Shown: positions 711 through 19,903, counted from the first letter of the stretch. The stretch is DNA of 64,000 nt from Syntrophorhabdaceae bacterium (GCA_963665295.1 OY762209.1:4864001-4928000); one strand, 5' to 3'. Made by a program: numbers and translations. The notes: generated by a model from the letters alone, not told the origin.

Positions 711-1328
711 ATGAAAAACGACAGGCAGGCGGGGAGCAAGAGGATTCAGAGCATTATGAAGGCCGGCGCTGAATTGTTCAGCACCAAGGGATTCGTGGAA
801 ACGAGCATGGATGAGGTGGCCGCCGCCGCAAAGATCAGCAAAGGCGGCATGTACCATTACTTTTCGAGCAAGAATGAACTCCTCGACGCCATCCTGGTCA
901 ATTTTATAGATATGGTCCTTGCGGACCTGGAAGAACTCGACAGGATCGCGGACCCCCTTGGAAAACTGACGAGGCTCGTCAGCCGCCATGTGGAGATATA
1001 CACGAAGCATCCCTATGCAGCGAAAACCCTGATCGATGAGGCCCATTGCCTTCCTGCCAGATCCCGTAAGAAGATCGTGGTGAAAGAAAAGGAGTATTTC
1101 CGCGCCGTGGCAGGGGTAGTGTCCGAGTATCTCGGCCCCTGTGTCGAAAAGAGTGAGGTTACCGCCATAACCTTCAGTCTCCTGGGAATGTGCAACTGGA
1201 TCTATTCCTGGTATAACCCCAAGGGCCCCATCGATCCTTCAAGACTGTCGGAGATCATACTCAGCATATTCAGCAATGGTGTTTGTGGCCTGCAGAAGAC
1301 CTTGAGCGAGCGTAACCCGCAGAACTGA
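711..1328 (+). CDS. TetR/AcrR family regulator (KstR2/AibR-like)
   Basis: N-terminal HTH (ELFSTKGFVETSMDEVAAAAKISKGGMYHYFSSK), C-terminal MCNWIYSWYNPKG; GAGGAG SD before ATG 711. Confidence 0.9.
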   Translation: MKNDRQAGSKRIQSIMKAGAELFSTKGFVETSMDEVAAAAKISKGGMYHYFSSKNELLDAILVNFIDMVLADLEELDRIADPLGKLTRLVSRHVEIYTKHPYAAKTLIDEAHCLPARSRKKIVVKEKEYFRAVAGVVSEYLGPCVEKSEVTAITFSLLGMCNWIYSWYNPKGPIDPSRLSEIILSIFSNGVCGLQKTLSERNPQN

Positions 1329-1586: not shown

Positions 1587-1634
1587 TTGACATCTAACCA
1601 GTTACATCATAAAACATACTTACCAGTAGGAATG
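1587..1634 (+). promoter_or_regulatory. sigma70 promoter and overlapping imperfect palindrome (candidate operator) of the mutase operon
   Basis: TTGACA (1587-1592)-17bp-TAAAAC; CATACTTACCAGTAGGAATG (1615-1634) is palindromic at 14 of 20 positions. Confidence 0.55.
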
Positions 1635-1655: not shown

Positions 1656-2318
1656 ATGGCGAGGCCCAGGAAAGGTCTTACGATTGATGAAGCAGATCCC
1701 AGACAAATGAAAAAGATCGGTCTGATCGCCAAGATCGGCGCCGAGCTTTTCAGTTCCAGGGGATACCTTGAAACAAGTATGGACGACATCGCTGCTGCCG
1801 CGAAGGTCACCAAGGGGGGCGTATACCACTACTTCGGCAGTAAAACCGACATCCTCTACTACATCTGCTCCAAGTACGTGGAGTTCGACATCGAAAACCT
1901 GGAGCAGTCCCTGAGCGCGATCCAAAACCCCCTGGAAAAGATCAAATTTATCATCTCCCGTCATATCGATCACTATAGCACCCATGCCGCCGCGGCAAAG
2001 ACGCTGCTCAACGAGGCCTACAACCTCCCCCCAAGGTACCGGAAGGAAGTGAAGGCAAGGGAGGCCCAGTACGTCAACATAATGACCCGTACCCTGTCGG
2101 AGTATCTCGGGCCCGAGACCCGCAAGGAAGTCATAACGGCCCTCGTGTTCACCCTCTTCGGCATGATGAACTGGATCTATTCCTGGTATGACCCGAAGGG
2201 GGCCATGAAGCCGGCTGAATTATCGGGTTTGATCTACGAAGTTTTTACAAAGGGGATTACGGACCCCACGTTTACTGCGGGAGGATTCGGGGCGATCATC
2301 GCCCGCCCTGTCTCATGA
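1656..2318 (+). CDS. TetR/AcrR family regulator (KstR2/AibR-like), paralog of 711..1328
   Basis: HTH GYLETSMDDIAAAAKVTKGGVYHYFGSK; MNWIYSWYDPKG; GGAGGG SD. Confidence 0.9.
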   Translation: MARPRKGLTIDEADPRQMKKIGLIAKIGAELFSSRGYLETSMDDIAAAAKVTKGGVYHYFGSKTDILYYICSKYVEFDIENLEQSLSAIQNPLEKIKFIISRHIDHYSTHAAAAKTLLNEAYNLPPRYRKEVKAREAQYVNIMTRTLSEYLGPETRKEVITALVFTLFGMMNWIYSWYDPKGAMKPAELSGLIYEVFTKGITDPTFTAGGFGAIIARPVS

Positions 2319-2356
2319 CCCCCGGAATATGCGTTTCGACGCAAGGACTTTGACCC

Positions 2357-3325
2357 ATGAAGCCAGACCTGGACACGCTTTTTGAAGGACTCGAAAAAGG
2401 AGACAAAAGGAGTGCGGGCAGAATACTCACCCTCCTCGAAGACAGGGGGCCGGAAAGCACGGAACTCCTCAGGAGACTCTACGCCTCGGAGCGAAGGTCT
2501 CTGGTCGCGGGCGTGACAGGCTGGCCCGGCGTAGGAAAGAGCTCCCTTATTACCCGCATGGCCAGGGTGTATCTCGACCAGGGCAAGCGGGTGGGCATTG
2601 TCGCCGTGGACCCCACAAGTCCCTTCTCCGGGGGTGGCATTCTGGGAGACCGCATACGTTTCAGGGACATCGACGGGAGAGAGAACCTCTTCATCCGCTC
2701 GGTGGCAACCCGGGGCCACCACGGTGGTCTTTCGAGGTCGGCACGGTCCTTCGTAAAGGTCATGGAGGCCATGGGCTGTGACGTGGTGCTCCTGGAGACA
2801 GTGGGCGTAGGACAGGATCAGGTGAATATAAGCCTCATTGCGGACACTACCGTGGTGGTGGTCGCTCCCGGATTGGGAGATTTCCTTCAGGCCATGAAAT
2901 CGGGTGTCCTTGAGGCAGGAGATATTTTCGTCGTGAACAAAGCCGACCGTCCGGACGCGGACAAGGCGATCCAATACCTGGAATCCGCCATAAGGATGAG
3001 GGAAAGGGCGGGCTGGCGCCCTCCTGTGGTGAAGACCGTGGCTGCCGATGGAAGCGGGGTCGATACCCTCGTAAGGGAGATCGGGAATCATGCTGCCCAC
3101 TGCTCCCTTGAAACCGGCGAGGTATCCCTCAAACTGAGGGCCGCACGGGACGAAATCAAGGAAGCGTTAAAGACGCGGCTTCTCGAATATCTTTTCGGGG
3201 GCGACGCTTTGGAAGACTCTCCTGTCAGCCGGTACGCCCGGCAGGTCTGTGAGAGAAGGGCCGATCCCTATCTGCTTGCCGACGCGATACTGGCGGAGAA
3301 AGGTATTACCCAAGACATTTCGTAA
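2357..3325 (+). CDS. meaB: MeaB/ArgK GTPase chaperone of B12-dependent mutase
   Basis: GVTGWPGVGKSS, AVDPTSPFSGGGILGDRIR, ETVGVGQ, NKAD motifs. Confidence 0.93.
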   Translation: MKPDLDTLFEGLEKGDKRSAGRILTLLEDRGPESTELLRRLYASERRSLVAGVTGWPGVGKSSLITRMARVYLDQGKRVGIVAVDPTSPFSGGGILGDRIRFRDIDGRENLFIRSVATRGHHGGLSRSARSFVKVMEAMGCDVVLLETVGVGQDQVNISLIADTTVVVVAPGLGDFLQAMKSGVLEAGDIFVVNKADRPDADKAIQYLESAIRMRERAGWRPPVVKTVAADGSGVDTLVREIGNHAAHCSLETGEVSLKLRAARDEIKEALKTRLLEYLFGGDALEDSPVSRYARQVCERRADPYLLADAILAEKGITQDIS

Positions 3326-3339
3326 ATCTGGAGGGAGCA

Positions 3340-4971
3340 ATGGCAAAGAACCCAAAAATCAACTTCGATCATACCACGGGGGAGAAGCTTCCCCATTTCC
3401 GGTCCCTTTCGGGCATCGAGTACAAAAGGATATACGACCGCAACGATTGGGACGATACCCTCCCCGACGCCGGTGAATACCCCTTCACAAGGGGCATTCA
3501 CAAGGACATGTACCGGGGAAGGCTTTGGACCCGCAGGCAGCAGAGCGGCTTCGGCTCTCCCGAGGAAAGCAACGAACTCCTGAAATTCCTGTTAAAAGTA
3601 GGCCAGACGGGCATCAACATAGACTCCGACATAGCGGGCAAGATCGGGGTGGACCCCGACTATCCGCTGGGTCAGGCAGACGTCGGGCTTCAGGGAACTT
3701 CCATGTGCACCTACGAGGACATGGCCGCCCTTTTTAAGGATATCCCCCTCGACCGTATCAGCTCGACTCTCATCTTTCCTCCTCCCGCATCGGTGGTAAT
3801 GATGGGTCAGTACATGATGATGGCAAAGGAGCAGGGCATACCGCAGGAAAACCTCATCGGCACTATGATGAACTGCCCCTTTACCCAGCTTGTGGGCCCC
3901 ACGTTCCAGGCCAACACCGATTTCTTCCCCATCGACCTCGCCCTCAAGATTGGACTCGACCTTATCGAATACCTGGTGCCCCGCTGTCCCAAGTGGAACA
4001 TCCTCAACGTCAACTCAAGGAACATCAGGGAAAGTGGTGTGGACGCAGTTCAGGAGGCGGCCTTTTCCCTGGCCCTCGGCGTGGACTACGTGGACAGGCT
4101 GTGCAAACGGGGCGTGGCTGTAGATACCTTCGCCCGGAGGATCGGCTTCTTCTCCGCCGTGCACCTCGATATCTTCGAGGAAGTGGCAAAATTCAGGGCC
4201 ATGCGGCGCATATGGGCGCGACAACTCAAGGAGCGCTTCGGCGCACAAGACGAAAGGAGCATGTGGTTCCGCTGCGCCGTGCAGACATCTTCTCTCACCC
4301 TTACCGCCCAGGAGCCCATGAACAATATCGTAAGGGCCGCGGTCCAGACGCTCACCGCCGTACTCGCGGGGGTCCAGTCCGTGCACACCACTTCCTATGA
4401 CGAGGCCTACTGCCTGCCGTCTGAGGAGACCCACAAGCTCGCCATCCGCACGCAACAGATCATCGCCTACGAAACCGGGGCCACAAAGTCGGCGGACCCC
4501 CTCGGAGGCTCCTATCTTGTGGAGAAGATGACGGACGAGATGGAAGAACGCATCTGGGAGATGATGAAAGTTATCGAAGGCCGGGGCGGATTCATCGAGT
4601 GTTTCAAGGAAGGGTGGGTCGAAAACGAGCTCAATCAGGCGCGGTACAAACTGGCGGACCAGATGGAGACAGGGGAACTGCCTATCCTCGGAATGAACCT
4701 CTTCAGGGAAGAGGATACGGCTCCCGATATCGACATTTTCAAACAGGCGCCCGATATGCAGGCCAGGCGCATCGAGTATGCGCGGAACTACAAAAGAGGC
4801 CATAGCCAGGGCCCCGTGCGCCGGGCTCTCGACAACCTGAGAGAAAGGACCGGGAAGCACCCGGACGAGGACCTCGTGCCGCCCATACTGGAGGCCGTGG
4901 AAACCAGGGCCACTTTACAGGAGATATGCGATGCAATGAGGGAAGCGACAAATTTTTCCATTCCCCGGTAG
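3340..4971 (+). CDS. B12-dependent acyl-CoA mutase, substrate-binding (large) subunit, non-canonical specificity
   Basis: GEYPFTRG, MYRGRLWT, FEEVAKFRAMRRIW, QSVHTTSYDEA, DPLGGSY motifs of the methylmalonyl-CoA mutase family. Confidence 0.93.
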   Translation: MAKNPKINFDHTTGEKLPHFRSLSGIEYKRIYDRNDWDDTLPDAGEYPFTRGIHKDMYRGRLWTRRQQSGFGSPEESNELLKFLLKVGQTGINIDSDIAGKIGVDPDYPLGQADVGLQGTSMCTYEDMAALFKDIPLDRISSTLIFPPPASVVMMGQYMMMAKEQGIPQENLIGTMMNCPFTQLVGPTFQANTDFFPIDLALKIGLDLIEYLVPRCPKWNILNVNSRNIRESGVDAVQEAAFSLALGVDYVDRLCKRGVAVDTFARRIGFFSAVHLDIFEEVAKFRAMRRIWARQLKERFGAQDERSMWFRCAVQTSSLTLTAQEPMNNIVRAAVQTLTAVLAGVQSVHTTSYDEAYCLPSEETHKLAIRTQQIIAYETGATKSADPLGGSYLVEKMTDEMEERIWEMMKVIEGRGGFIECFKEGWVENELNQARYKLADQMETGELPILGMNLFREEDTAPDIDIFKQAPDMQARRIEYARNYKRGHSQGPVRRALDNLRERTGKHPDEDLVPPILEAVETRATLQEICDAMREATNFSIPR

Positions 4972-5090
4972 GGCCTGAAGAAGCGCCCGTGCGGTGATCC
5001 ACGGTGGGGTCCGCGCGGGCGGGGGAATGGCTGCCCGGAAGCATAAACCCGGGTGGGTTGTGTTGCCCAATACGAGAAGAGGAGCAGACA

Positions 5091-5501
5091 ATGCCCGGAA
5101 GAAAACGAATCATTATGGCAAAGATGGGGCTCGACGCCCACGACAACGGTCTCAGGATCGTTTCGAAATGGCTTGCGGACGCAGGATACGAAGTGATCTA
5201 TGCGGGAGTATACAATTCCGCGGAAAGAATCCTGCAGATGACCCTGGAAGAGAACGCGGACGCCCTGGGTCTCAGCTTTCTCGGAGGTGAACATCTCCAC
5301 TATTCGAAAAAGGTCCGCGAACTGCTGAAGGAGAACGGCCTCGAGAATGTAAAGATCTTTGCAGGCGGAATTATCCCTCCCGCCGACGTAGTCGCCCTGA
5401 AAGGCTTGGGCGTGGATGCGGTTTTTACGCCCGGGACTCCGAGGGCTCAGATACTCGACGCCATAGCCCGGTGCCTGGGGGTCGAAGAGGACAATACATG
5501 A
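5091..5501 (+). CDS. acyl-CoA mutase cobalamin-binding (small) subunit
   Basis: AKMGLDAHDNG (DxHxxG), GLSFLGGEH, GGIIP, FTPGT. Confidence 0.93.
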   Translation: MPGRKRIIMAKMGLDAHDNGLRIVSKWLADAGYEVIYAGVYNSAERILQMTLEENADALGLSFLGGEHLHYSKKVRELLKENGLENVKIFAGGIIPPADVVALKGLGVDAVFTPGTPRAQILDAIARCLGVEEDNT

Positions 5502-6856
5502 AAACAGAGGAAGGGCTCGTCGATTTTATCACCCGCACCCGTATCGGGGATATCCCCGAGGGAGCGAGGAAGACGGTCAAGAACCAGTTGCTCACCATAG
5601 CCGGCACCACGCTCGCGGGCGCCGCAGAGGACGGCTGCGAAGAAACGGTCCGGTTCTACCATGAAATGGGCGGCAAAGAAGAAGCGACCATACTTGTCCA
5701 CGGGGGAAGAATTCCCGCTCACGACGCAGCTTTCGTGAACGCCGTGATGGCCCGCTCCCTGGATCTCTGCGACTCCATCGCACCCGGTCCCCACATCGGG
5801 GCCGCCCTGATTACCGGGTCTCTCGCGGCGGCGGAGATGATAGGGGGCATGACGGGACGGGACTTCTTCGAGGGAATTATCGTGGGCAACGAGGTAGCGG
5901 CGAGAATGAATCTCACCGAAGAAGCCTATAACGGGTTCGACCCCACGGGGATATGCGTGATCTTCGGCGTAGCCGCCTCAGTCTCAAAAATACTCCACCT
6001 CAGCCCCTCCCAGACATGGAACGCCCTTGCTCTCGCCTTCAACCGGTGCGGCGGGAGTTTTCAAAGCCATATCGACGGGTCTCTCGGGGTCCGCTTCGTT
6101 CAGGGATGGGTTGCTCAGGGAGGAGTCCTCTGCGCCCGCCTCGCCTCAAAGGGGATCACGGGACCCAGGAACTTCCTCGATGGGATTTACGGGTATCTCC
6201 ATCTTTACGGTAAGGACCTCATTACGGGCGACCGCATCACGGCAGGTCTCGGCGAGCGTTATGTACTCGAAAACATGGTGTACAAAAAATATCCGAGCTG
6301 CGCCCTCACCCAGGGCCCGACGGACGAGATACTGAAGGTAATGGCCGAGCAGGGGCTATCCCCCCACGACATTGACCGCGTCTTTGTCACGGTGCCCCCC
6401 TACACCCACAAACTCGTGGGCCACGAGTTCGAAATAGGGGACAACCCGAGGGTCAACGCCCAGTTCAACATCCGGTACTGTGTGGCCAACGCGTTGACGA
6501 GGGGGGCCGCGAGGCTCGAACATTTCGAGGAACGGTTCATACGGCAGGGGGAGACCGCGGAGCTTGCGAAGCGCATCACTGTTATCCCCAACAAGACCCT
6601 GGAGGAGCGGGGGCACACGCCCATGGACATGCGGGTAGTGACCCTGGACGGCCACGAGTTTCTGAAATCAATAGATATCGGCCCGGGCTTTCCCGGTAAT
6701 CCCCTCACTCCGAAGGACCACGAAAGACGCTTCAGGGACTGTCTCGCCTTTGCGAAGAGACCGGTAAGTGAAGAAAAGGCGGCGGGGATCGTCTCCCTGG
6801 TGGAACACATCGAAGAGGTTCAGGACATAAGGACATTTGTCGAATTGCTGACATAA
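5498..6856 (+). CDS. MmgE/PrpD family protein
   Basis: AAFVNAVMARSLDLCD..H, KKYPSC, AQFNIRY, GFPGNPL motifs; ATGA overlap with upstream gene. Confidence 0.88.
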   Translation: MKTEEGLVDFITRTRIGDIPEGARKTVKNQLLTIAGTTLAGAAEDGCEETVRFYHEMGGKEEATILVHGGRIPAHDAAFVNAVMARSLDLCDSIAPGPHIGAALITGSLAAAEMIGGMTGRDFFEGIIVGNEVAARMNLTEEAYNGFDPTGICVIFGVAASVSKILHLSPSQTWNALALAFNRCGGSFQSHIDGSLGVRFVQGWVAQGGVLCARLASKGITGPRNFLDGIYGYLHLYGKDLITGDRITAGLGERYVLENMVYKKYPSCALTQGPTDEILKVMAEQGLSPHDIDRVFVTVPPYTHKLVGHEFEIGDNPRVNAQFNIRYCVANALTRGAARLEHFEERFIRQGETAELAKRITVIPNKTLEERGHTPMDMRVVTLDGHEFLKSIDIGPGFPGNPLTPKDHERRFRDCLAFAKRPVSEEKAAGIVSLVEHIEEVQDIRTFVELLT

Positions 6857-6876
6857 CGCATTTGGAGGGAAACATC

Positions 6877-8433
6877 ATGATGACCGTGATTGATTTGATT
6901 GCACGAAACGCAAGGATTTACCCGACGGCTACCGCCTTCGTGGAGGTCAAGCCGGTAAGCAAGGCCCGAAAGGAAATCACCTGGGCCGGTTTCTATGAGA
7001 GGATGAACAGGATCGCCAACGTACTCGACGCCAAAGGCATAAAGAAGGGCATGAAGGTAGCCCTCCTTGGAAGGAACTCCATCGACTGGCTTGAGGCTTT
7101 CTTCGGGATCATGGCCACCGGGGCTTGGGCGATACCGCTCAACTTCAGGTTCACCGACGATGATATCAAGTATTGCACGGGCATAGGAGAGCCCGGCTGT
7201 TTCATCTGCGACGATGAATTTGCCGAAAGGATCGCCGCTCTGAAACCGGAACTCCCTACAGTGCACACCCTTTTCTCCATAGGTGCCACATCACGGCCCG
7301 ACATAGATGCTCTCGAACCATTGATGGTGACTGTCCCTTCCGTTCCCGTCGACGTGGAGTTGAACGACGAGGATGAGTGCGCCCTCTATTTTACCTCCGG
7401 CACCACGGGCGCGCCCAAGGCGGTGCTCCACGCCCACCGGAGCCTCATGGTATCCGCCGTAACCGAAGCGACAAACCATGACTGGACCGCCGGTGACAGC
7501 CAGCTCATGATGCCGCCCCTGTACCACCTCGCCATCGGCCACCTCCTGGGCGGCCTCATTGCAGGCGGGTCGAACGTGCTCCTTACGGAACTCATCAAAC
7601 CGGATATCATACTCGACACCCTCGCAAAGGAGAAAGTAACCATCGTTTTCCTTCTCGTCCCGTGGGCCCTCGACATTGTGGGCGCCTTCGACAGGAAGGA
7701 ACTCGCGCCGAAGGGCTATGACCTGAGCAAACTCCGTCTCATGCACATGGGCGCTCAGCCCATACCTGTAAGCCTGATCCGGAAGTGGAAGTCCTACTTC
7801 CCGGACATGTCCTATGACACGAGCTACGGCCTGAGCGAGGGCGGAGGCCCGGGCATAACCCACGTGGGTACCCAGAACGAAAGTAAAGTGGGGGCCATAG
7901 GGAGGCCGAGTCTCATATGGGACGTCCGCGTAGCGAAAGAAGACGGAACGGACGTCGCTGTCGGCGAAGTGGGAGAGCTTGTAGTAAAAAGCAACGGCAA
8001 TATGAAGGGTTATTACAAGAACCCCGAGGGGACCGCCCAGATCATCCGTAAGGGCTGGATCCATACCGGCGACCTGGGGAGGATCGACGAGGACGGTTTC
8101 ATCTACATAGTCGACCGTAAGAAGGACCTCATTATCTGTGGGGGCGAAAATATCTTCCCCGTGGAGATCGAGGAAATCCTCGTAAGACACCCGAAGGTCC
8201 ACGACGTGGCGGTGATCGGCGCACCCGACGACAGACTGGGAGAAGCGATCGTGGCAGTGATCCAGGCCGCACCGGGCGAAAAGCCCACAGAGGCGGAAAT
8301 GGCCGCCTACTGCGAGGAGAACCTCCCACGGTATAAAAGGCCCCGGCGGTTCATATTCGATGAAGTACCGCGAAGCGCCACCGGTAAGATAGAAAAACCG
8401 AAGCTGAGGAAAAAGCATATCCCTCAGGGTTGA
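6877..8433 (+). CDS. AMP-forming acyl-CoA synthetase
   Basis: YFTSGTTGAPK, YGLSE, TGDLG, DRKKDLII.GGENIFP, PRSATGKI. Confidence 0.92.
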   Translation: MMTVIDLIARNARIYPTATAFVEVKPVSKARKEITWAGFYERMNRIANVLDAKGIKKGMKVALLGRNSIDWLEAFFGIMATGAWAIPLNFRFTDDDIKYCTGIGEPGCFICDDEFAERIAALKPELPTVHTLFSIGATSRPDIDALEPLMVTVPSVPVDVELNDEDECALYFTSGTTGAPKAVLHAHRSLMVSAVTEATNHDWTAGDSQLMMPPLYHLAIGHLLGGLIAGGSNVLLTELIKPDIILDTLAKEKVTIVFLLVPWALDIVGAFDRKELAPKGYDLSKLRLMHMGAQPIPVSLIRKWKSYFPDMSYDTSYGLSEGGGPGITHVGTQNESKVGAIGRPSLIWDVRVAKEDGTDVAVGEVGELVVKSNGNMKGYYKNPEGTAQIIRKGWIHTGDLGRIDEDGFIYIVDRKKDLIICGGENIFPVEIEEILVRHPKVHDVAVIGAPDDRLGEAIVAVIQAAPGEKPTEAEMAAYCEENLPRYKRPRRFIFDEVPRSATGKIEKPKLRKKHIPQG

Positions 8434-8543
8434 GGACGGAGGCGCCGGGACCCGTGTCAAAAGAAAGGAAATGCCACCACCCGCGGTCCCGGCGCTAAAG
8501 ACCCCCGCACCGGGGATTCCGATGGTCGGAGAGGAGAGTATTT

Positions 8544-9029
8544 ATGGAGAAGTTTCAGATAGTTGTCAGCCGATTGTGTAAATACATGGCGGTAGTAGCC
8601 GGGACGGCGCTCGTCCTGGTCATGCTCCTTACCGTGCTCGATGTCATTCTGAGGTATTTTGGGCATCCCATATTGGGGGTATACGACCTGGTGGCCCTTG
8701 GGGGCGCCATCGTCATCGGCTTCTCCCTCCCCTATGCCGCGGAAAGAAAGGTCCATGTCTTTATGGAAATGATCCAGCAAGCACAGGGCAAACGCTTGAA
8801 ACAGGTGCTCTTGGTGGTAACCCGTCTCATCGCCTTGCTCATAAGCATCATAGTTGCCTGGCACCTCGTACGACTCGGGCAGGGCTTCCGCGAGACGGGC
8901 GAGGCTTCTCTCACAGTCCAGATAGTCTACTACCCTATCGCCATAGGATTGGGGGTGTGTTTCCTGGGACAGGCACTCGTGTATTTCGTGCAAATCTTCA
9001 AGGGTGCTTCCGGAGGCGAAAATGAATGA
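8544..9029 (+). CDS. TRAP transporter small permease (DctQ)
   Basis: about 4 TM segments, DVILRY motif, adjacent to DctM. Confidence 0.88.
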   Translation: MEKFQIVVSRLCKYMAVVAGTALVLVMLLTVLDVILRYFGHPILGVYDLVALGGAIVIGFSLPYAAERKVHVFMEMIQQAQGKRLKQVLLVVTRLIALLISIIVAWHLVRLGQGFRETGEASLTVQIVYYPIAIGLGVCFLGQALVYFVQIFKGASGGENE

Positions 9030-10323
9030 GGTAACAGTAGGATTAATCGGTTTAGTGGCTTTACTGGTGCTCTTTCTCATGGGGCTCGAACTGGCTATAG
9101 CGATGCTGGTGGTGGGTTTCGTGGGGTTCGCGTACATTGTCAATCTCGATGCGGCGTTCAACCTGGTAGCAAAGGATATCTTTGACGCTTTCGAGTCGTA
9201 CAGCCTGACGGTGGTGCCTCTCTTTGTCCTCATGGGCCAGCTCGCCTATAACGCGGGGATTGCGAAAAGGCTCTACGGAACGGCCCACCGCTTCCTCGGG
9301 CACATCAAGGGCGGACTCGCCATCGCCACGGTATCGGGGTGCACCATATTCGGCGCCATCTGCGGCTCAGCCGCAGCCACGGCGGCGACGTTCTCGTCCG
9401 TCTCTATTCCGGAAATGGACCGGTTCGGGTACAAGAGAAGCTTTTCGGCAGGCCTCGTCGCCATCGCAGGGACCCTGGGCATCATGATACCGCCGAGCGT
9501 ACCCATGATCATCTATGGTATTATCACCCAGCAATCCATCGGCAGGCTCTTCGTGGCAGGCATAGTCCCTGGTGTGGTTATCTGCTTCCTTTTCATCGGT
9601 CTCATCGTGGCCCGGTGCCGTATAAATCCCGACATTGCGCCTATGGGTGAACGGTTCACCTGGAAAGAGCGTTTCGCTTCTCTCTCCGGCGTGATATGGC
9701 CCCTTGCGATATTCGCGGTAGTCATGGAAGGTCTCCTTCAGGGTATCTTTACGCCCACGGAGGCGGCAAGCGTGGGCACCTTCGCCATACTCCTCCTCTC
9801 TCTTGCCCGGCGCGACGTAACCTTGCCGGGCATCATCAAGTCCGTGGGGGAAAGCCTTCTCACCGCCACCATGGTCCTTTTCCTCCTTGCAGGATCCACA
9901 GTCCTCGGACACTTTCTCGCCGTAACAAAGATTCCTATCTTCGTATCCGAATGGGTGGTGGGTCTGCCCTTTCCCAACTGGACAATCATGATGATCATAT
10001 GTTTCATCTATCTTCTGGGGGGCTCTTTCATCGACGACCTCGCCTTCATGGTGCTCGCCACGCCGATCTTCTTCCCTGCGGTGCTCAAACTCGGGTATAA
10101 CCCCATCTGGTTCGGCATCATGATCACCATAACGGTAATGGTGGGAATAGTGGTCCCTCCGGTGGCCCTTAACGTCTTCGTGGTGAAGAATATAACCAAG
10201 ACGTCGTTCAAGGACATCTATATCGGCGTCTACCCATTTCTTCTCGGGCTCGTGGGTTGTGCGATCCTCTTATTCATCTTCCCCCAGATCGCGCTCTTTC
10301 TCCCGAACCTGCTTTATAAGTGA
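9022..10323 (+). CDS. TRAP transporter large permease (DctM)
   Basis: PLFVLMG, GTLGIMIPPS, FTPTEAA, VPPV motifs. Confidence 0.92.
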   Translation: MNEVTVGLIGLVALLVLFLMGLELAIAMLVVGFVGFAYIVNLDAAFNLVAKDIFDAFESYSLTVVPLFVLMGQLAYNAGIAKRLYGTAHRFLGHIKGGLAIATVSGCTIFGAICGSAAATAATFSSVSIPEMDRFGYKRSFSAGLVAIAGTLGIMIPPSVPMIIYGIITQQSIGRLFVAGIVPGVVICFLFIGLIVARCRINPDIAPMGERFTWKERFASLSGVIWPLAIFAVVMEGLLQGIFTPTEAASVGTFAILLLSLARRDVTLPGIIKSVGESLLTATMVLFLLAGSTVLGHFLAVTKIPIFVSEWVVGLPFPNWTIMMIICFIYLLGGSFIDDLAFMVLATPIFFPAVLKLGYNPIWFGIMITITVMVGIVVPPVALNVFVVKNITKTSFKDIYIGVYPFLLGLVGCAILLFIFPQIALFLPNLLYK

Positions 10324-10399
10324 GGATAAGATTATGGAAGCATCGACCACCCCGCGTGGTGCAATAGACTTCAAAAAAACTAAGGATAGGGGGTTTTCT

Positions 10400-11431
10400 A
10401 TGAAACGATCCGCATCTGCAATGTCTTTGTTGGCCGTCCTCTTTCTGGGCTTCGGCCTGCTCTACTCCGGCGCCGCCCATGCCCAGCAGGGCACGGTGAC
10501 GCTCAACTACTCCAATTTCTTCCCTGCGAACCACAAACACAGCCTTCTCGCGGAACAGTGGTGCCAGGAAGTAACCAAGAGAACGAACGGCAAGGTAAAA
10601 GTGACCATGTTCCATGGGGGTACGTTGACTTCTCCCCAACTGGCGTACGACGGCGTAGTGAAGGGCCTCTCCGATATGGCCCTCGGCGTGTTCAGCTATT
10701 CCAGAGGCCGCTTTGCCCTCACGGAAGTGATCGATTTGCCCCTAGGTTTCAGGAGCGGCTATATCGCCACAAAACTCGTGAATGAATATTACAGGAAGTT
10801 CAAACCAAAAGAAATGGATGACGTGAAGGTCATGTATCTCCATGCCCATGGACCCGCCATTCTTCACACGGGAAAGAGACCCGTCGCGAAACTCGAAGAA
10901 ATGAAGGGCCTCAAAGTAAGAGTCACTCCCCTTGCCACGCCGACTCTCTCGGCCCTGGGGGCCACTCCTGTGGCAATGCCCATGGGAGATACCTACGATT
11001 CCCTGTCGAAGGGCGTAGTGGACGGGGCCTTCTCCCCTTATGAAGCCCTTGAAGGCTGGAAATGGGGCGAGATCGTAAAGTATTCCACGGAGTGCTATGC
11101 CGTCTCCCCGTCGAGCGCGTTCTTTGTAGTCATGAACAAGAAGAAGTGGGATTCCCTGTCTCCCGAGGTTCACAAAATCATTGAGAAGATCAATGACGAA
11201 TGGATAGAGAAACAGGGTAAGGTCTGGGACGAGATAGACACGGAAGGCAAGGCCTTCGCAGTCAAGAAAGGGCACAAGAGCATCACCCTTTCGGGCGCGG
11301 AACAGGCAAGATGGGTAGCCGCGGTCAAACCGGTCCTTGACGATTACATGAAGAGAACCAAGGCAAAAGGACTACCCGGCGACGAAGTCCTGAAATTCAG
11401 CATCGATTACCTCAAGAAGAACCAGAAGTAG
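10400..11431 (+). CDS. TRAP transporter substrate-binding protein (DctP)
   Basis: signal peptide, MKGLKVR, LGATPVAMPMGDTYDSLSKGVVDG. Confidence 0.92.
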   Translation: MKRSASAMSLLAVLFLGFGLLYSGAAHAQQGTVTLNYSNFFPANHKHSLLAEQWCQEVTKRTNGKVKVTMFHGGTLTSPQLAYDGVVKGLSDMALGVFSYSRGRFALTEVIDLPLGFRSGYIATKLVNEYYRKFKPKEMDDVKVMYLHAHGPAILHTGKRPVAKLEEMKGLKVRVTPLATPTLSALGATPVAMPMGDTYDSLSKGVVDGAFSPYEALEGWKWGEIVKYSTECYAVSPSSAFFVVMNKKKWDSLSPEVHKIIEKINDEWIEKQGKVWDEIDTEGKAFAVKKGHKSITLSGAEQARWVAAVKPVLDDYMKRTKAKGLPGDEVLKFSIDYLKKNQK

Positions 11432-11447
11432 AAGGTGGAAGGATCAG

Positions 11448-11487
11448 GCATCCCCGGCACGACTCACCTGCCGGGGATGCTGTTTTT
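11448..11487 (+). terminator. intrinsic terminator of mutase/TRAP operon
   Basis: GCATCCCCGGCA / TGCCGGGGATGC 12-bp stem followed by TGTTTTT. Confidence 0.75.
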
Positions 11488-12616: not shown

Positions 12617-13549
12617 TCAGCGCGGGTCATATCGTAGAAGAGATTTCTTCAGGTCCCCCCGGACTATTTCCCGGAACCAGTCGGGGGAGACCACTTCCAC
12701 ATAAGGAATCCAGCGGTAAATCCAATTACGTATCCCGTCGGCGCCCTTCACCGCGAATTTCATTTCCAGCCGGCCGTCAGGTAACGTCTTTACCTCCTGG
12801 CGCTGTTGCCATTTTCTTCTGAGGACGCTCGACTGAATCTCTTTATCGAAGAGCAGGGTTATCTCCACCGGCTCCCCATCCAGGTATGCGCCGAAGGCTC
12901 CGGAGAGTTCCTCGTGTGGAGAAACAGGCCGCGGGACAAAATGTTCATCAAGGGTGTTTAGAGAAATCATCTTGTCGAGCGCAAAGACCCGGAGGTCCTT
13001 TCTGAGGTTACAGTACGCCCTGAGGTTCCAGAACCCGCCCTCGAAGAAAAGGTAGTAAGGGTCGAGTTTTCTCGTGGTCACCTGACTGGTGGACAACGCC
13101 CTATAGACTATCTCCACCCGCTGGAAGTTTATTATGGCCTGATGCAGGAACCCAAGATAGCGACCTGTCTTCTCGGGCAATTCTTCGCTGGAGAGAATAA
13201 TATGGCCCGTGACGTCGGTTCTCTTTGCGGCAAGTCTTTCTTCCAGTTTGTTGAAGCTGTTCTCGAACCCGGGCCCGAATTTCGTAAGAAGCTTTTTTGC
13301 GAGGGCGAGGCCGAGTATCTCCCCTGTTGAGAGAGACGGCCTTGTAAGGGTGAACCCCTCGTCGAAGGTGTAGCTGCCCTTTTTCCGGTCGTAGTTTATG
13401 GGGAAACCGGCAGTGAGGAGGGTATCCATGTAACGGTACACACTCCTGTCGCTAATCTCGAACTCGTCCATGAGAGACCTGGCCGTCACGTGCTCCCTGC
13501 GATCCAGCTTGTTCAGAATCGTTATAAGGGTATCGAATTTGTATGACAT
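12617..13549 (-). CDS. HTH-WYL-WCX transcriptional regulator (YafY/DriD/PafBC family)
   Basis: wHTH (EFEISDRSVYRYMDTL..AGFPI), WYL domain (RKLDPYYL..GFWNLRAYC..R.DLRVFALDK), WCX (VEVVSPDWFR). Confidence 0.92.
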   Translation of the reverse strand: MSYKFDTLITILNKLDRREHVTARSLMDEFEISDRSVYRYMDTLLTAGFPINYDRKKGSYTFDEGFTLTRPSLSTGEILGLALAKKLLTKFGPGFENSFNKLEERLAAKRTDVTGHIILSSEELPEKTGRYLGFLHQAIINFQRVEIVYRALSTSQVTTRKLDPYYLFFEGGFWNLRAYCNLRKDLRVFALDKMISLNTLDEHFVPRPVSPHEELSGAFGAYLDGEPVEITLLFDKEIQSSVLRRKWQQRQEVKTLPDGRLEMKFAVKGADGIRNWIYRWIPYVEVVSPDWFREIVRGDLKKSLLRYDPR

Positions 13550-18228: not shown

Positions 18229-19903
18229 GTCTCCATCCGGAAACCTAACCCCATGAAATATTTGCCCAAATCCCCACATTCCCCTGGAGTTTCGCCCCTC
18301 ATCTGAGGTACAATATGGTTGTAACAAGGCAATATCATTACCTAACGCCTTCAGAAAGGATTCCGGAATGCGCCAGAAATTCAACCCCCAGACAGGTCTC
18401 TTCTCCCCCATGATGCGCCATTCTATTGTAAAGGAGCTTCAGGAGATGTCAAAGGTCATAGACGCCAATCCCCGCCTTCTGGATCTGGTCTTCGGGGATA
18501 TGACCTCCTTCTGTCGCACCGACACGGGAAGAGAGGGGCTCACCGCGGAACAGGTGCTCCGGATCGCCATACTCAAGCAGTACCGCCAACTGACGTATGA
18601 AGAGCTTGCCTTCCACATGGAAGACTCCGACGCACTCCGCAGTTTCGCGAGATTGGAGATGGGACAGTACCCCTCCAAATCGGTCCTTCAGGAGAACATA
18701 AAGGCGATACGGGAAGAAACCTGGGAGGCGATCATTCAGGAAGTAAACCGCTACGCGGTAAAGGAGAAGATAGAATCCGGCCGCGTGGTAAGAGTAGACT
18801 CCACCACGGTGGAGACCAACATCCACCACCCCACCGACTCATCGCTCATCGTGGACGGCATCCGCGTCATTACCCGGTTACTCACCGAAGGGAAGGAGCT
18901 TGCTCCCGTGCCCCGGTATGCCTACAGTGACCATAGGAGAGTAGCCAAGAAGAAGCTCATGACGATCCTCAATGCAAAGAACGACAGAACACGGAAGAGC
19001 GCCTACAAGGACCTCCTCCACTATGCGAATCTCGTGAAGGGATATGCCGAAGAGGCGATCACCGAACTCATCCCCTACGAGGGCGATAATCTCATGGACA
19101 CCTTCGCTGCCCGCGAGCTTGCCCGGAGACTTGAACGCGCCGTGGGCATACTCGGGAAGGTCATCGACCAGACCGACCGGAGAGTCTTCAAGAACGAGAA
19201 GGTCCCCGCCTCCGAGAAGATCGTCTCTTTCTTCGAGGACCACACGGACATCATCGTGAAGGGGAGGAGGGATACCGAGTACGGCCATAAGGTGTTCCTT
19301 ACAGGAGGACGCTCCACCATGATCATCGGGTGTCTCATCGTCCCGGGCAACCCCGCTGATACCGACCAGTATCAATCCCTCCTTGAGCAGCATAAGGAGT
19401 GGTACGGGAAGATGCCTCGCCAAGTGACGGCCGACGGGGGCTTTGCCTCAAAAGAGAACCTCGCCTATGCGAAGGAGAACCATATCAAGGATGCCGTCTT
19501 CGCCAGAAAGAGGGGGCTCTCCATCCTCGACATGGCAAAGAGCACCTGGGTCTACAAGAAGCTCAGGAACTTCCGGGCGGGCATTGAAGCAGGCATCTCC
19601 ACATTGAAACGGTCCTTCGGCCTTGACCGGGCGACGTGGACAGGATGGGAAGGGTTTGCCCGGTACGTGCTCTCCAGTATCGTCTCCTACAATCTTCTCG
19701 TCATCGCCCGCATCAGGATGGCCTCATGATGAGAGAAGACTATTTTCTCAAGGGGACAAGGGTGAGCTACGCCCTGACTCTGGGGAAAACGGGCCCGATG
19801 GAGTGAAATCCGAAAAGGGATGACGGAATCACCGGACGGCTGAGCGCCCACCCTGGCAATAGACCGGGGGCTTGCTCGAAAATGGGGGTTTCCGGATGGA
19901 GAC
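18229..19903 (+). mobile_element. insertion sequence (ISNCY/IS5-like, probably ISDol1 group)
   Basis: perfect 17-bp terminal IRs GTCTCCATCCGGAAACC / GGTTTCCGGATGGAGAC; flanking direct repeat TATTTA (18223-18228, 19904-19909). Confidence 0.9.
18368..19729 (+). CDS. DDE transposase
   Basis: VRVDSTTVETNIHHPTDSSL, TADGGF, RNFRAGIEAGISTLKR. Confidence 0.93.
   Translation: MRQKFNPQTGLFSPMMRHSIVKELQEMSKVIDANPRLLDLVFGDMTSFCRTDTGREGLTAEQVLRIAILKQYRQLTYEELAFHMEDSDALRSFARLEMGQYPSKSVLQENIKAIREETWEAIIQEVNRYAVKEKIESGRVVRVDSTTVETNIHHPTDSSLIVDGIRVITRLLTEGKELAPVPRYAYSDHRRVAKKKLMTILNAKNDRTRKSAYKDLLHYANLVKGYAEEAITELIPYEGDNLMDTFAARELARRLERAVGILGKVIDQTDRRVFKNEKVPASEKIVSFFEDHTDIIVKGRRDTEYGHKVFLTGGRSTMIIGCLIVPGNPADTDQYQSLLEQHKEWYGKMPRQVTADGGFASKENLAYAKENHIKDAVFARKRGLSILDMAKSTWVYKKLRNFRAGIEAGISTLKRSFGLDRATWTGWEGFARYVLSSIVSYNLLVIARIRMAS

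Follow-up and report, generated by a model that had tools for sequence, protein, structure and literature searches.

An adenosylcobalamin-dependent mutase of a separate clade and its PrpD-like partner in a conserved gene cassette of a Syntrophorhabdaceae bacterium

Few specificities of adenosylcobalamin (AdoCbl)-dependent acyl-coenzyme A (acyl-CoA) mutases are known, and both synthesis and the design of carbon fixation have a use for enzymes that perform 1,2-shifts on new skeletons (PMC11599936, PMC2847961). Among described systems, the 2-hydroxyisobutyrate cluster of Aquincola tertiaricarbonis and Kyrpidia tusciae comprises a regulator, hcmAB or rcmAB, meaH and hcl (PMC7176365), while IaaGH is the (2-aminophenyl)succinyl-CoA/benzylmalonyl-CoA mutase of anaerobic indoleacetate degradation (PMC8360864). 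An MmgE/PrpD-family protein racemizes free methylsuccinate, having no activity on its CoA ester, ahead of a stereoselective CoA transferase that then uses both forms (PMC12290011). Here we describe a nine-gene unit at positions 1656-11431 of a 64,000-nucleotide stretch (OY762209.1:4864001-4928000, hereafter the window) from the genome GCA_963665295.1 of a Syntrophorhabdaceae bacterium, a single contig of 5.5 Mb. A preliminary description of this DNA had read the unit as dedicated to the uptake, activation and rearrangement of a carboxylic acid, a reading that our analysis supports, and had assigned its genes to TetR, MeaB, a split mutase, an MmgE/PrpD-family enzyme, a CoA ligase and a TRAP importer; Pfam/TIGRFAM profile matches confirm these families for all nine genes, which lie on the plus strand.

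The mutase, its PrpD-like partner and their shared core

Judged by its sequence, the mutase belongs to a separate clade, here called clade A, in which we found no characterized member. Its membership of the AdoCbl acyl-CoA mutase family is seen in the MCM-type barrel, in the small subunit with its base-off/His-on DxHxxG motif (D15 and H17 invariant in 16/16 aligned sequences) and in the MeaB partner, and the fold is confirmed by a structure model whose predicted local distance difference test score (pLDDT) of only 61 makes it usable for the fold only. The closest sequence match in the PDB is HcmA (4R3U; 36% identity, 374 bits vs. 314 for MCM), and entries for the MCM variants Y89F and H244A are among the structural matches of the model. 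Sixteen chosen members of clade A form one branch against 15 other mutases (support 100/100), and a quick tree of 84 rows agrees (Shimodaira-Hasegawa-like approximate likelihood ratio test, SH-aLRT, 90); in these trees the characterized enzymes are represented by motif look-alikes and PDB alignments in place of rows of their own.

In MCM numbering, we take Tyr89, Gln197, Arg207 and His244 to determine substrate specificity, with Tyr89 and Arg207 presumably forming the carboxylate site. All of the 120 best homologs (64-100% identity, picked without a motif filter) have Tyr89 replaced by Gln, Gln197 by Met, Asp199 by Cys and His244 by Asn, and none has Arg at 207, where Ala or Ser is found instead; the Tyr243 position is Arg in 80/120 and Tyr in 40/120. 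Asp95 is likewise present in 120/120 and aligns with HcmA Asp117, which we take to be the hydroxyl anchor, and the Arg87, Glu247, Gln330 and Glu370 positions of acyl-CoA mutases are conserved in clade A. The locus searches reported below used patterns containing the Gln and are thus uninformative on its conservation.

By both clade and active-site residues the enzyme is not an MCM, ICM or RCM, in support of the earlier reading. Canonical MCM was rejected on the replacement of Tyr89, Gln197, Arg207 and His244 and on a score of 383 bits against an equivalog cut-off of 876 (large subunit alone). ICM/RCM, the signature of which we take to be Phe at 89 with Gln197 and His244, was rejected since the residues differ and Phe89-type sequences lie outside clade A on the tree. 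From the presumed pivalyl-CoA mutase signature, Leu89 with Asn244, clade A has the Asn at 244 and no Leu at 89, and a Leu/Asn sequence (L125) branches outside the clade. IaaGH was rejected on its dicarboxylate site and on gene context, as the iaa-like genes of the host genome accompany a different mutase. Database labels for these genes read "methylmalonyl-CoA mutase" or "2-methylcitrate dehydratase" and are probably wrong. Clade A is rare, with members in 7/96 genomes of the class and 3/401 of the phylum (the host genome counted); the named relatives are Syntrophorhabdus and other Desulfobacterota-type metagenome-assembled genomes (MAGs), further hosts are MAGs of Alphaproteobacteria, Rokubacteria, Chloroflexota and Nitrospinota, and all 59 clade-A loci from GTDB come from MAGs. 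A collection of 365 plasmid records held no member (best match 39.8%). Six loci (L013, L147, L035, L039, L040, L076) have two clade-A copies in tandem within a cassette, which suggests two substrates or two successive shifts; identity to the window's mutase is about 51-58% for one and 56-73% for the other.

The closest PDB match of the PrpD-like protein is IDS epimerase (2HP3), with whose His99, Tyr145 and Lys266 its His99, Tyr144 and Lys263 align; Asp88 of IDS epimerase is also kept. D89, H99, Y144, K263, R86 and D148 are invariant in 15/15 orthologs, and V198 nearly so. The carboxylate-binding set of IDS epimerase is not kept, as His85, His150 and Lys198 are replaced by Arg86, Asp148 and Val198. 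The catalytic His and Tyr and the Lys, which stabilizes the enolate, constitute a two-base set, the extra Tyr marking two-base isomerases (PMC12290011), and matching residues are reported in cis-aconitate decarboxylase (PMC6789909). 2-Methylcitrate dehydratase PrpD was rejected on scores of 18.5 and 23.9 bits against equivalog cut-offs of 458 and 575, and no prpB or prpC is present in the unit. On these residues, the simplest reading is probably that of a racemase acting ahead of the ligase and a stereospecific mutase, which requires a substrate with a C2 hydrogen and a C2 stereocenter.

Neighbors within 6 kb were counted at those 55 of 74 clade-A loci that extend at least 2.5 kb downstream (9 near and 46 far relatives); as some are near-duplicates or kin of one another, the counts do not stand for independent events. 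At the near loci we found the PrpD-like gene in 8, the cognate ligase in 9, TetR in 8, dctM in 4 and MeaB in none, and at the far loci the PrpD-like gene in 8, the cognate ligase in 11, a PaaK-like ligase in 17, TetR in 19, dctM in 9 and MeaB in 6, and each of the 16 loci with the PrpD-like gene also has the cognate ligase. TetR, mutase, PrpD and ligase thus make up the core, which is conserved at 8/9 near loci, with TRAP and MeaB as optional additions. A lactate-racemase-family gene near the PrpD-less locus L051 is an isolated case to which we give no weight. Co-conservation of the neighborhood, which the preliminary description proposed to check, holds for the mutase, PrpD-like, ligase and TetR genes and is not general for TRAP and MeaB, and the unit can hardly be called self-contained, as it also holds no gene for using the rearranged product. 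Chance adjacency through expansion of TRAP and ligase paralogs was rejected for the core, not for TRAP.

It is the PrpD-like gene, not the mutase, that is the constant part of the system. A profile of its subfamily matches 23/96 genomes of the class, three times the mutase's number. Of 30 matches, 24 were read with wide flanks and six on short loci only glanced at (one with a mutase fragment and a ligase, one with a flavocytochrome). A B12 mutase stands in the same cassette in 16/24 loci and is of four types: clade A (5), clade B (5), a type keeping Tyr89/Arg207 (1) and a GlmE/GlmS/GlmL-like type (5). Seven of the 24 lack a nearby mutase and one further locus is cut by the contig end. Loci with clade B, which is 31% identical to the window's mutase, carry the same TetR, ligase and DctP, while the Glm-like loci are without a ligase and 3/5 have a flavocytochrome c. 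The mutase types are interleaved on the PrpD tree, which suggests that mutases may have been exchanged round a constant core, and the presence of this gene beside four kinds of mutase probably points to undescribed B12 chemistry.

The partner types merit description in their own right. Clade B (L154:8827-12084, G000 ~1486859-1489810; L198, L199, L202, L205 and L215) is an uncharacterized acyl-CoA mutase clade with 87-89% identity among members, in which Tyr89 is replaced by Thr and the active-site loop is rebuilt. The Glm-like set (L206:4310-7732; also L200, L208, L209 and L210) has a large subunit that scores 354 bits against an equivalog cut-off of 390 and is without equivalents of Arg66, Arg149, His150, Glu171 and Tyr177; no methylaspartate ammonia-lyase was seen among its scanned neighbors, and it is probably a new, CoA-independent B12 mutase. 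Near distant PrpD-like genes (48-49%) of two genomes lies a protein of 445-459 residues (L211:36-1412, L212:4672-6010) with no Pfam match at 1e-6.

Proposed pathway and competing explanations

From the computed genes, families, clade, residue patterns, co-conservation and operator we infer all reactions and substrates of the following pathway, to which we assign a probability of roughly 0.45: a C2-chiral monocarboxylate, X-CH(CH3)-COOH with X likely aryl, would be racemized, activated and rearranged to a 3-substituted CoA ester. An aromatic X is favored about two to one within this reading. The TRAP system would import the C2-branched acid, with X most likely aryl or heteroaryl, and the PrpD-like enzyme would racemize it at C2 while it is still free. 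From one enantiomer the ligase would form the CoA ester, in which the mutase would then move the thioester; the resulting X-CH2-CH2-CO-SCoA would pass to β-oxidation encoded elsewhere and, for an aryl X, yield aroyl-CoA and acetyl-CoA; the acyl-CoA would release TetR from its operator. The PrpD-like enzyme would in this way replace the methylmalonyl-CoA epimerase (MCE) of ordinary mutase operons, acting before activation and not after it. As the preliminary description stated, no epimerase or carboxylase gene lies within the unit; three glyoxalase/MCE-like matches are found elsewhere in the host genome. An MCE-like gene occurs within 6 kb in 2/55 clade-A loci, both times beside a separate canonical mutase, and belongs to no clade-A unit.

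A second-carboxylate site appears to have been lost independently in the mutase, the PrpD-like enzyme, two unrelated flavoproteins and the Glm-like enzyme, so the substrate probably has a single carboxyl group. The Glm-like partner, read with the roles that we presume for glutamate mutase Arg66, Arg100, Arg149 and Glu171, keeps only Arg100 of the three arginines and is without the Glu, and such a site would fit propionate with the migrating X at C2/C3, the same net change as that made by an acyl-CoA mutase on 2-X-propionyl-CoA. Both kinds of linked flavoprotein keep Arg402, His504 and Arg544 where read, and His365 is replaced by Tyr or Phe, as in urocanate reductase (motif positions from bioRxiv 10.1101/2022.01.20.477176). 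The DctP model (pLDDT 94) has at structural ranks 1-22 the Desal_3247, Dde_0634, BB2442-type, "aromatic acid" and TarP coumarate/ferulate/cinnamate/4-hydroxyphenylacetate binders, and the C4-dicarboxylate binders PA5167 and PA0884 only at ranks 36-49. For Dde_0634 and BB2442 the ligands are assumed by us. The cassette ligases have a common pocket signature, and besides the PaaK-like ligases of the far loci, IOR alpha genes above cut-off (L071, L080), PadG/PadI-like genes (L033) and AOR genes recur near cassettes; β-oxidation genes (acyl-CoA dehydrogenase (ACAD), ECH, 3HCDH, thiolase, ETF) adjoin L024, L045, L049, L050, L062, L066, L205 and L217. The preliminary description considered a branched or polar acid and named polycarboxylates as substrates of the PrpD family; the signs found here favor an acid with one carboxyl group, which is probably aromatic.

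Several observations weigh against this pathway. The identity of DctP to its top structural neighbors is just 26-35%, and with 18 DctP and 28 ligase matches in the host genome, many of the same class, its aromatic sign is not specific to the unit. PaaK-like ligases, among which we count HCL, also activate aliphatic acids. All residue roles are transferred by alignment, and the mutase model is too poor for its pocket to be read. The invariant Asp95 suggests a hydroxyl or amine, which a plain 2-arylpropionate lacks; Arg227 (80/120) and, in PrpD, Arg86/Arg199 are potential binding residues for a second anion. No PrpD gene lies within 6 kb at 38/46 far loci, two of the seven mutase-less PrpD-like loci hold close orthologs (64% and 69%), and HGD/BCR-family genes beside ligase paralogs score below benzoyl-CoA reductase cut-offs. 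All characterized MmgE/PrpD substrates are 1,4-dicarboxylates (PMC12290011). The HGD-D pairs, with BcrAD-type ATPases beside ligase/DctP paralogs (L156:4822-7352, L157:1-3928; seven matches in the genome), also fall below all dehydratase cut-offs.

These points give room to other explanations. The PrpD-like enzyme could be a dehydratase/hydratase or double-bond isomerase of a branched acid with a hydroxyl group (tropate-like, HOCH2-CH(X)-COOH), a linked flavoprotein reducing the enoate before the saturated or hydroxylated acid is activated and rearranged. Enoate-reductase-type flavoproteins do adjoin the PrpD-like gene in L030, L153, L199, L202, L206, L209, L210 and L215, the match of Asp95 to HcmA Asp117 would suit such a substrate, and 2-methylcitrate dehydratase is of the same family; we nevertheless consider this unlikely, as the second-base Tyr typical of isomerases is invariant, the PrpD equivalog scores are 18-24 bits vs. 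cut-offs of 458-575, and neither the window's unit nor the 6-kb surroundings of any of the 9 near loci contain a flavoprotein. Were the substrate instead a 2-substituted succinate (methylsuccinate, for example), the steps of racemase, ligase and mutase would end in glutaryl-CoA or in a malonyl-CoA with a substituent, and Arg227 would take on the anchoring of the carboxylate. This would be in keeping with all known MmgE/PrpD substrates and with a reduction of itaconate to methylsuccinate that has been proposed for anaerobic conditions (PMC12290011). Against the presence of Arg227 in the window's sub-clade, and of Tyr89 and Arg207 in the clade C partner, has to be set that position 227 is Tyr in 40/120 homologs, some of which come from loci where PrpD and ligase are the same, that the C1-carboxylate His is absent from the linked flavoproteins, that PA0884 and PA5167 rank well below the aromatic binders for DctP and that the equivalents of His150 and Lys198 are lost, which makes a succinate distinctly improbable.

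There is a small chance that the PrpD-like protein assists AdoCbl mutases in general, in side-product repair or cofactor handling, and uninformative on a substrate that would differ for each mutase type. It accompanies four dissimilar mutase types, its host-genome paralog sits with a CobO adenosyltransferase and a TonB/ABC uptake set, and CobO-like genes adjoin in L205 and L210. Its catalytic residues are, however, fully kept, the host's ordinary mutase loci (the iaa-like cluster) and most far clade-A loci are without it, and the different mutase types have the ligase pocket, DctP class, TetR and operator in common, an argument that their substrates are related. A larger tertiary 2-hydroxy acid (2-hydroxy-2-methylbutyrate, atrolactate or citramalate), converted to a 3-hydroxyacyl-CoA by an HCM-like mutase, is very improbable in our view: it would agree with the PDB match to HcmA, with Asp95 and with the mutase-PaaK-like ligase layout of the HCM cluster, but the equivalents of Ile90, Gln197 and His244 differ from HcmA, a tertiary acid offers a PrpD-type enzyme no C2 hydrogen, and methylsuccinate isomerase is reported as inactive on citramalate (PMC12290011).

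The racemize-activate-rearrange pathway, if true, would provide the first MmgE/PrpD enzyme acting on a monocarboxylate and the first to replace an epimerase in a pathway with B12. It would also account for the removal, by methanogenic communities, of α-branched acids that block β-oxidation. DctP, TetR, ligase and racemase each report on the substrate before any assay of the oxygen-sensitive mutase, a direct route to a new specificity. A doubtful extension is a modular "de-branching" system of syntrophic anaerobes in which one racemase would serve at least four unrelated B12 mutases with the same net conversion of 2-X-propionate to 3-X-propionate, three of them moving the CoA thioester and the Glm-like one, its amino-acid site lost, moving X (a 1,2-aryl shift without CoA); if it held, B12 would be found to have reactions not described before, and 2-aryl acids that are profen-like or come from isoflavonoids or lignin would have an anaerobic route.

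Layout of the unit and regulatory sites

The features of the unit and its upstream region are collected in Table 1. Overlapping start and stop codons, previously thought to run throughout the unit, occur at only 2/8 junctions: from 5' to 3' these measure 38, 14, 119, -4, 20, 110, -8 and 76 nucleotides, the overlaps being mutS/prpD and dctQ/dctM and the remaining gaps 14-119. The single terminator claimed with them is supported, as the hairpin with a U run at the end of the unit (z -5.0) is equaled in stability by 0/200 shuffles, while hairpins in the three longest internal gaps are no better than shuffles (z -1.3, -1.5 and +1.8). Our terminator scan skipped this hairpin, whose 9-nucleotide loop exceeds the scan maximum of 8.

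Table 1. Positions of the genes and predicted sites in the window.
Feature	Position	Strand	Basis or remarks
Paralogous TetR upstream	711-1328	+	47% identical to cassette TetR; own promoter-like site 572-600
Possible sigma-70 promoter	1587-1615	+	Perfect -35 at 1587-1592, 17-nucleotide spacer, weak -10 at 1610-1615
Predicted TetR operator, imperfect 20-bp palindrome	1615-1634	.	ATAC-N10-GWAT shape; conserved upstream of tetR
TetR-family regulator, predicted acyl-CoA sensor	1656-2318	+	TetR_N + TetR_C_24
MeaB G-protein chaperone	2357-3325	+	PF03308; TIGR00750 292 bits, cut-off 241
AdoCbl acyl-CoA mutase, substrate-binding subunit (clade A)	3340-4971	+	PF01642; TIGR00641 481 bits, cut-off 304
B12-binding small subunit	5091-5501	+	PF02310, TIGR00640; DxHxxG intact
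MmgE/PrpD-family enzyme, predicted C2 racemase on free acid	5498-6856	+	PF03972 + PF19305
Acid-CoA ligase	6877-8433	+	PF00501 + PF13193; no equivalog cut-off reached
TRAP small permease DctQ	8544-9029	+	PF04290
TRAP large permease DctM	9022-10323	+	PF06808; TIGR00786 above cut-off
TRAP solute-binding protein DctP	10400-11431	+	PF03480; structurally nearest aromatic-acid binders
Intrinsic-terminator-like hairpin + U run	11447-11487	+	13-bp stem, -35.6 kcal/mol

Neither the palindrome nor the upstream TetR paralog figures in the preliminary description. The possible promoter was read by eye, the consensus scan not having called it, and overlaps the palindrome, which is the best such site genome-wide (18/20) and has the same shape as the MbdR box ATACN10GTAT (PMC4424350). 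Operator-like sites (14-18/20 match) recur 5' of tetR in 7/17 related upstream regions tested, all seven from the closest sub-clade (L009, L010, L013, L014, L068, L069, L073). The nearest solved relatives of the cassette TetR include 5K7F and 3VPR, which we take to be AibR and PfmR, and KstR2. A second operator variant, its consensus made by hand from five sites, reaches 16-19/20 in eight further loci that were not used in making it, namely those of clade B L199 and L202, Glm-like L206 and far clade A L018, L021, L029, L050 and L054; most of the 33 loci tested stay below 16, as do all but one of 300 random 16-kb pieces. In the host genome this variant is found at a stand-alone clade B mutase (19/20) and, weakly (15/20), at the PrpD paralog with flavocytochrome and CobO, which together are probably a sibling module in two pieces. 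The latter locus (L153:1607-10060, G000 ~1719600-1728060) contains the PrpD paralog (55%), a flavocytochrome c, the CobO adenosyltransferase and the TonB/ABC uptake set, without a mutase.

The upstream TetR paralog is probably not part of the operon; it is 63% identical to the TetR of the Glm-type cassette L210 from a same-genus genome and may control a sibling module elsewhere in the genome. A near-perfect 20-bp palindrome lies at 618-637. Downstream of the unit are a WYL-domain regulator and a DDE transposase gene (12617-13549 and 18368-19729), which show no link to the cassette.

Comparison with known systems

No description of a mutase-PrpD pairing was found in the open-access literature, in line with the preliminary description, which knew of no such pathway; the arrangement of regulator, mutase, MeaB and ligase is nonetheless familiar from 2-hydroxyisobutyrate degradation (PMC7176365). 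As in that cluster, a regulator, a split AdoCbl mutase, a MeaB-type chaperone (at some loci only) and a CoA ligase form one unit, and the mutase shares with HcmA the Asp at the position equivalent to 117. It differs in having Gln, Met and Asn for Ile90, Gln197 and His244, a TetR and not a GntR regulator, an added PrpD-like gene and, in the window, a ligase of another family. With the methylmalonyl-CoA, isobutyryl-CoA (IcmF) and pivalyl-CoA mutases the enzyme has in common the TIM-barrel and Rossmann folds, the DxHxxG motif and the MeaB partner, whereas the specificity residues are replaced; Asn at His244 is shared with the Leu89/Asn244 type of L125, which we take to be pivalyl-CoA-mutase-like.

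IaaGH, likewise a split B12 mutase, has an aryl-substituted acyl-CoA as its substrate and belongs to an aromatic pathway of anaerobes (PMC8360864). The mutase of the host's own iaa-like cluster, unlike the one studied here, keeps Tyr89 and Arg207, the two being 34% identical. That cluster (L155:1-13178, G000 ~5002000-5015200) contains a GntR regulator, the split mutase, hydantoinase A/B, a PaaK-like ligase, an ACAD, a class III CoA transferase and xanthine-dehydrogenase-family genes, and its content suggests that the host degrades indoleacetate.

The PrpD-like enzyme resembles the (S)-(R)-methylsuccinate isomerase from the itaconate cluster of Pseudomonas/Cupriavidus and IDS epimerase in its MmgE/PrpD family and its His/Tyr/Lys set, and the methylsuccinate cluster likewise pairs such an enzyme with a CoA-activating one (PMC12290011). 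In contrast to both, three carboxylate-binding residues are changed (a comparison made to IDS epimerase by sequence and to methylsuccinate isomerase by description), and the partner is a B12 mutase and not an acyl-CoA dehydrogenase. As read from its genes, the cassette joins a layout of the 2-hydroxyisobutyrate type to the racemase logic of the methylsuccinate cluster and is a member of neither. It is a real and conserved system, with a known layout and probably a new chemistry.

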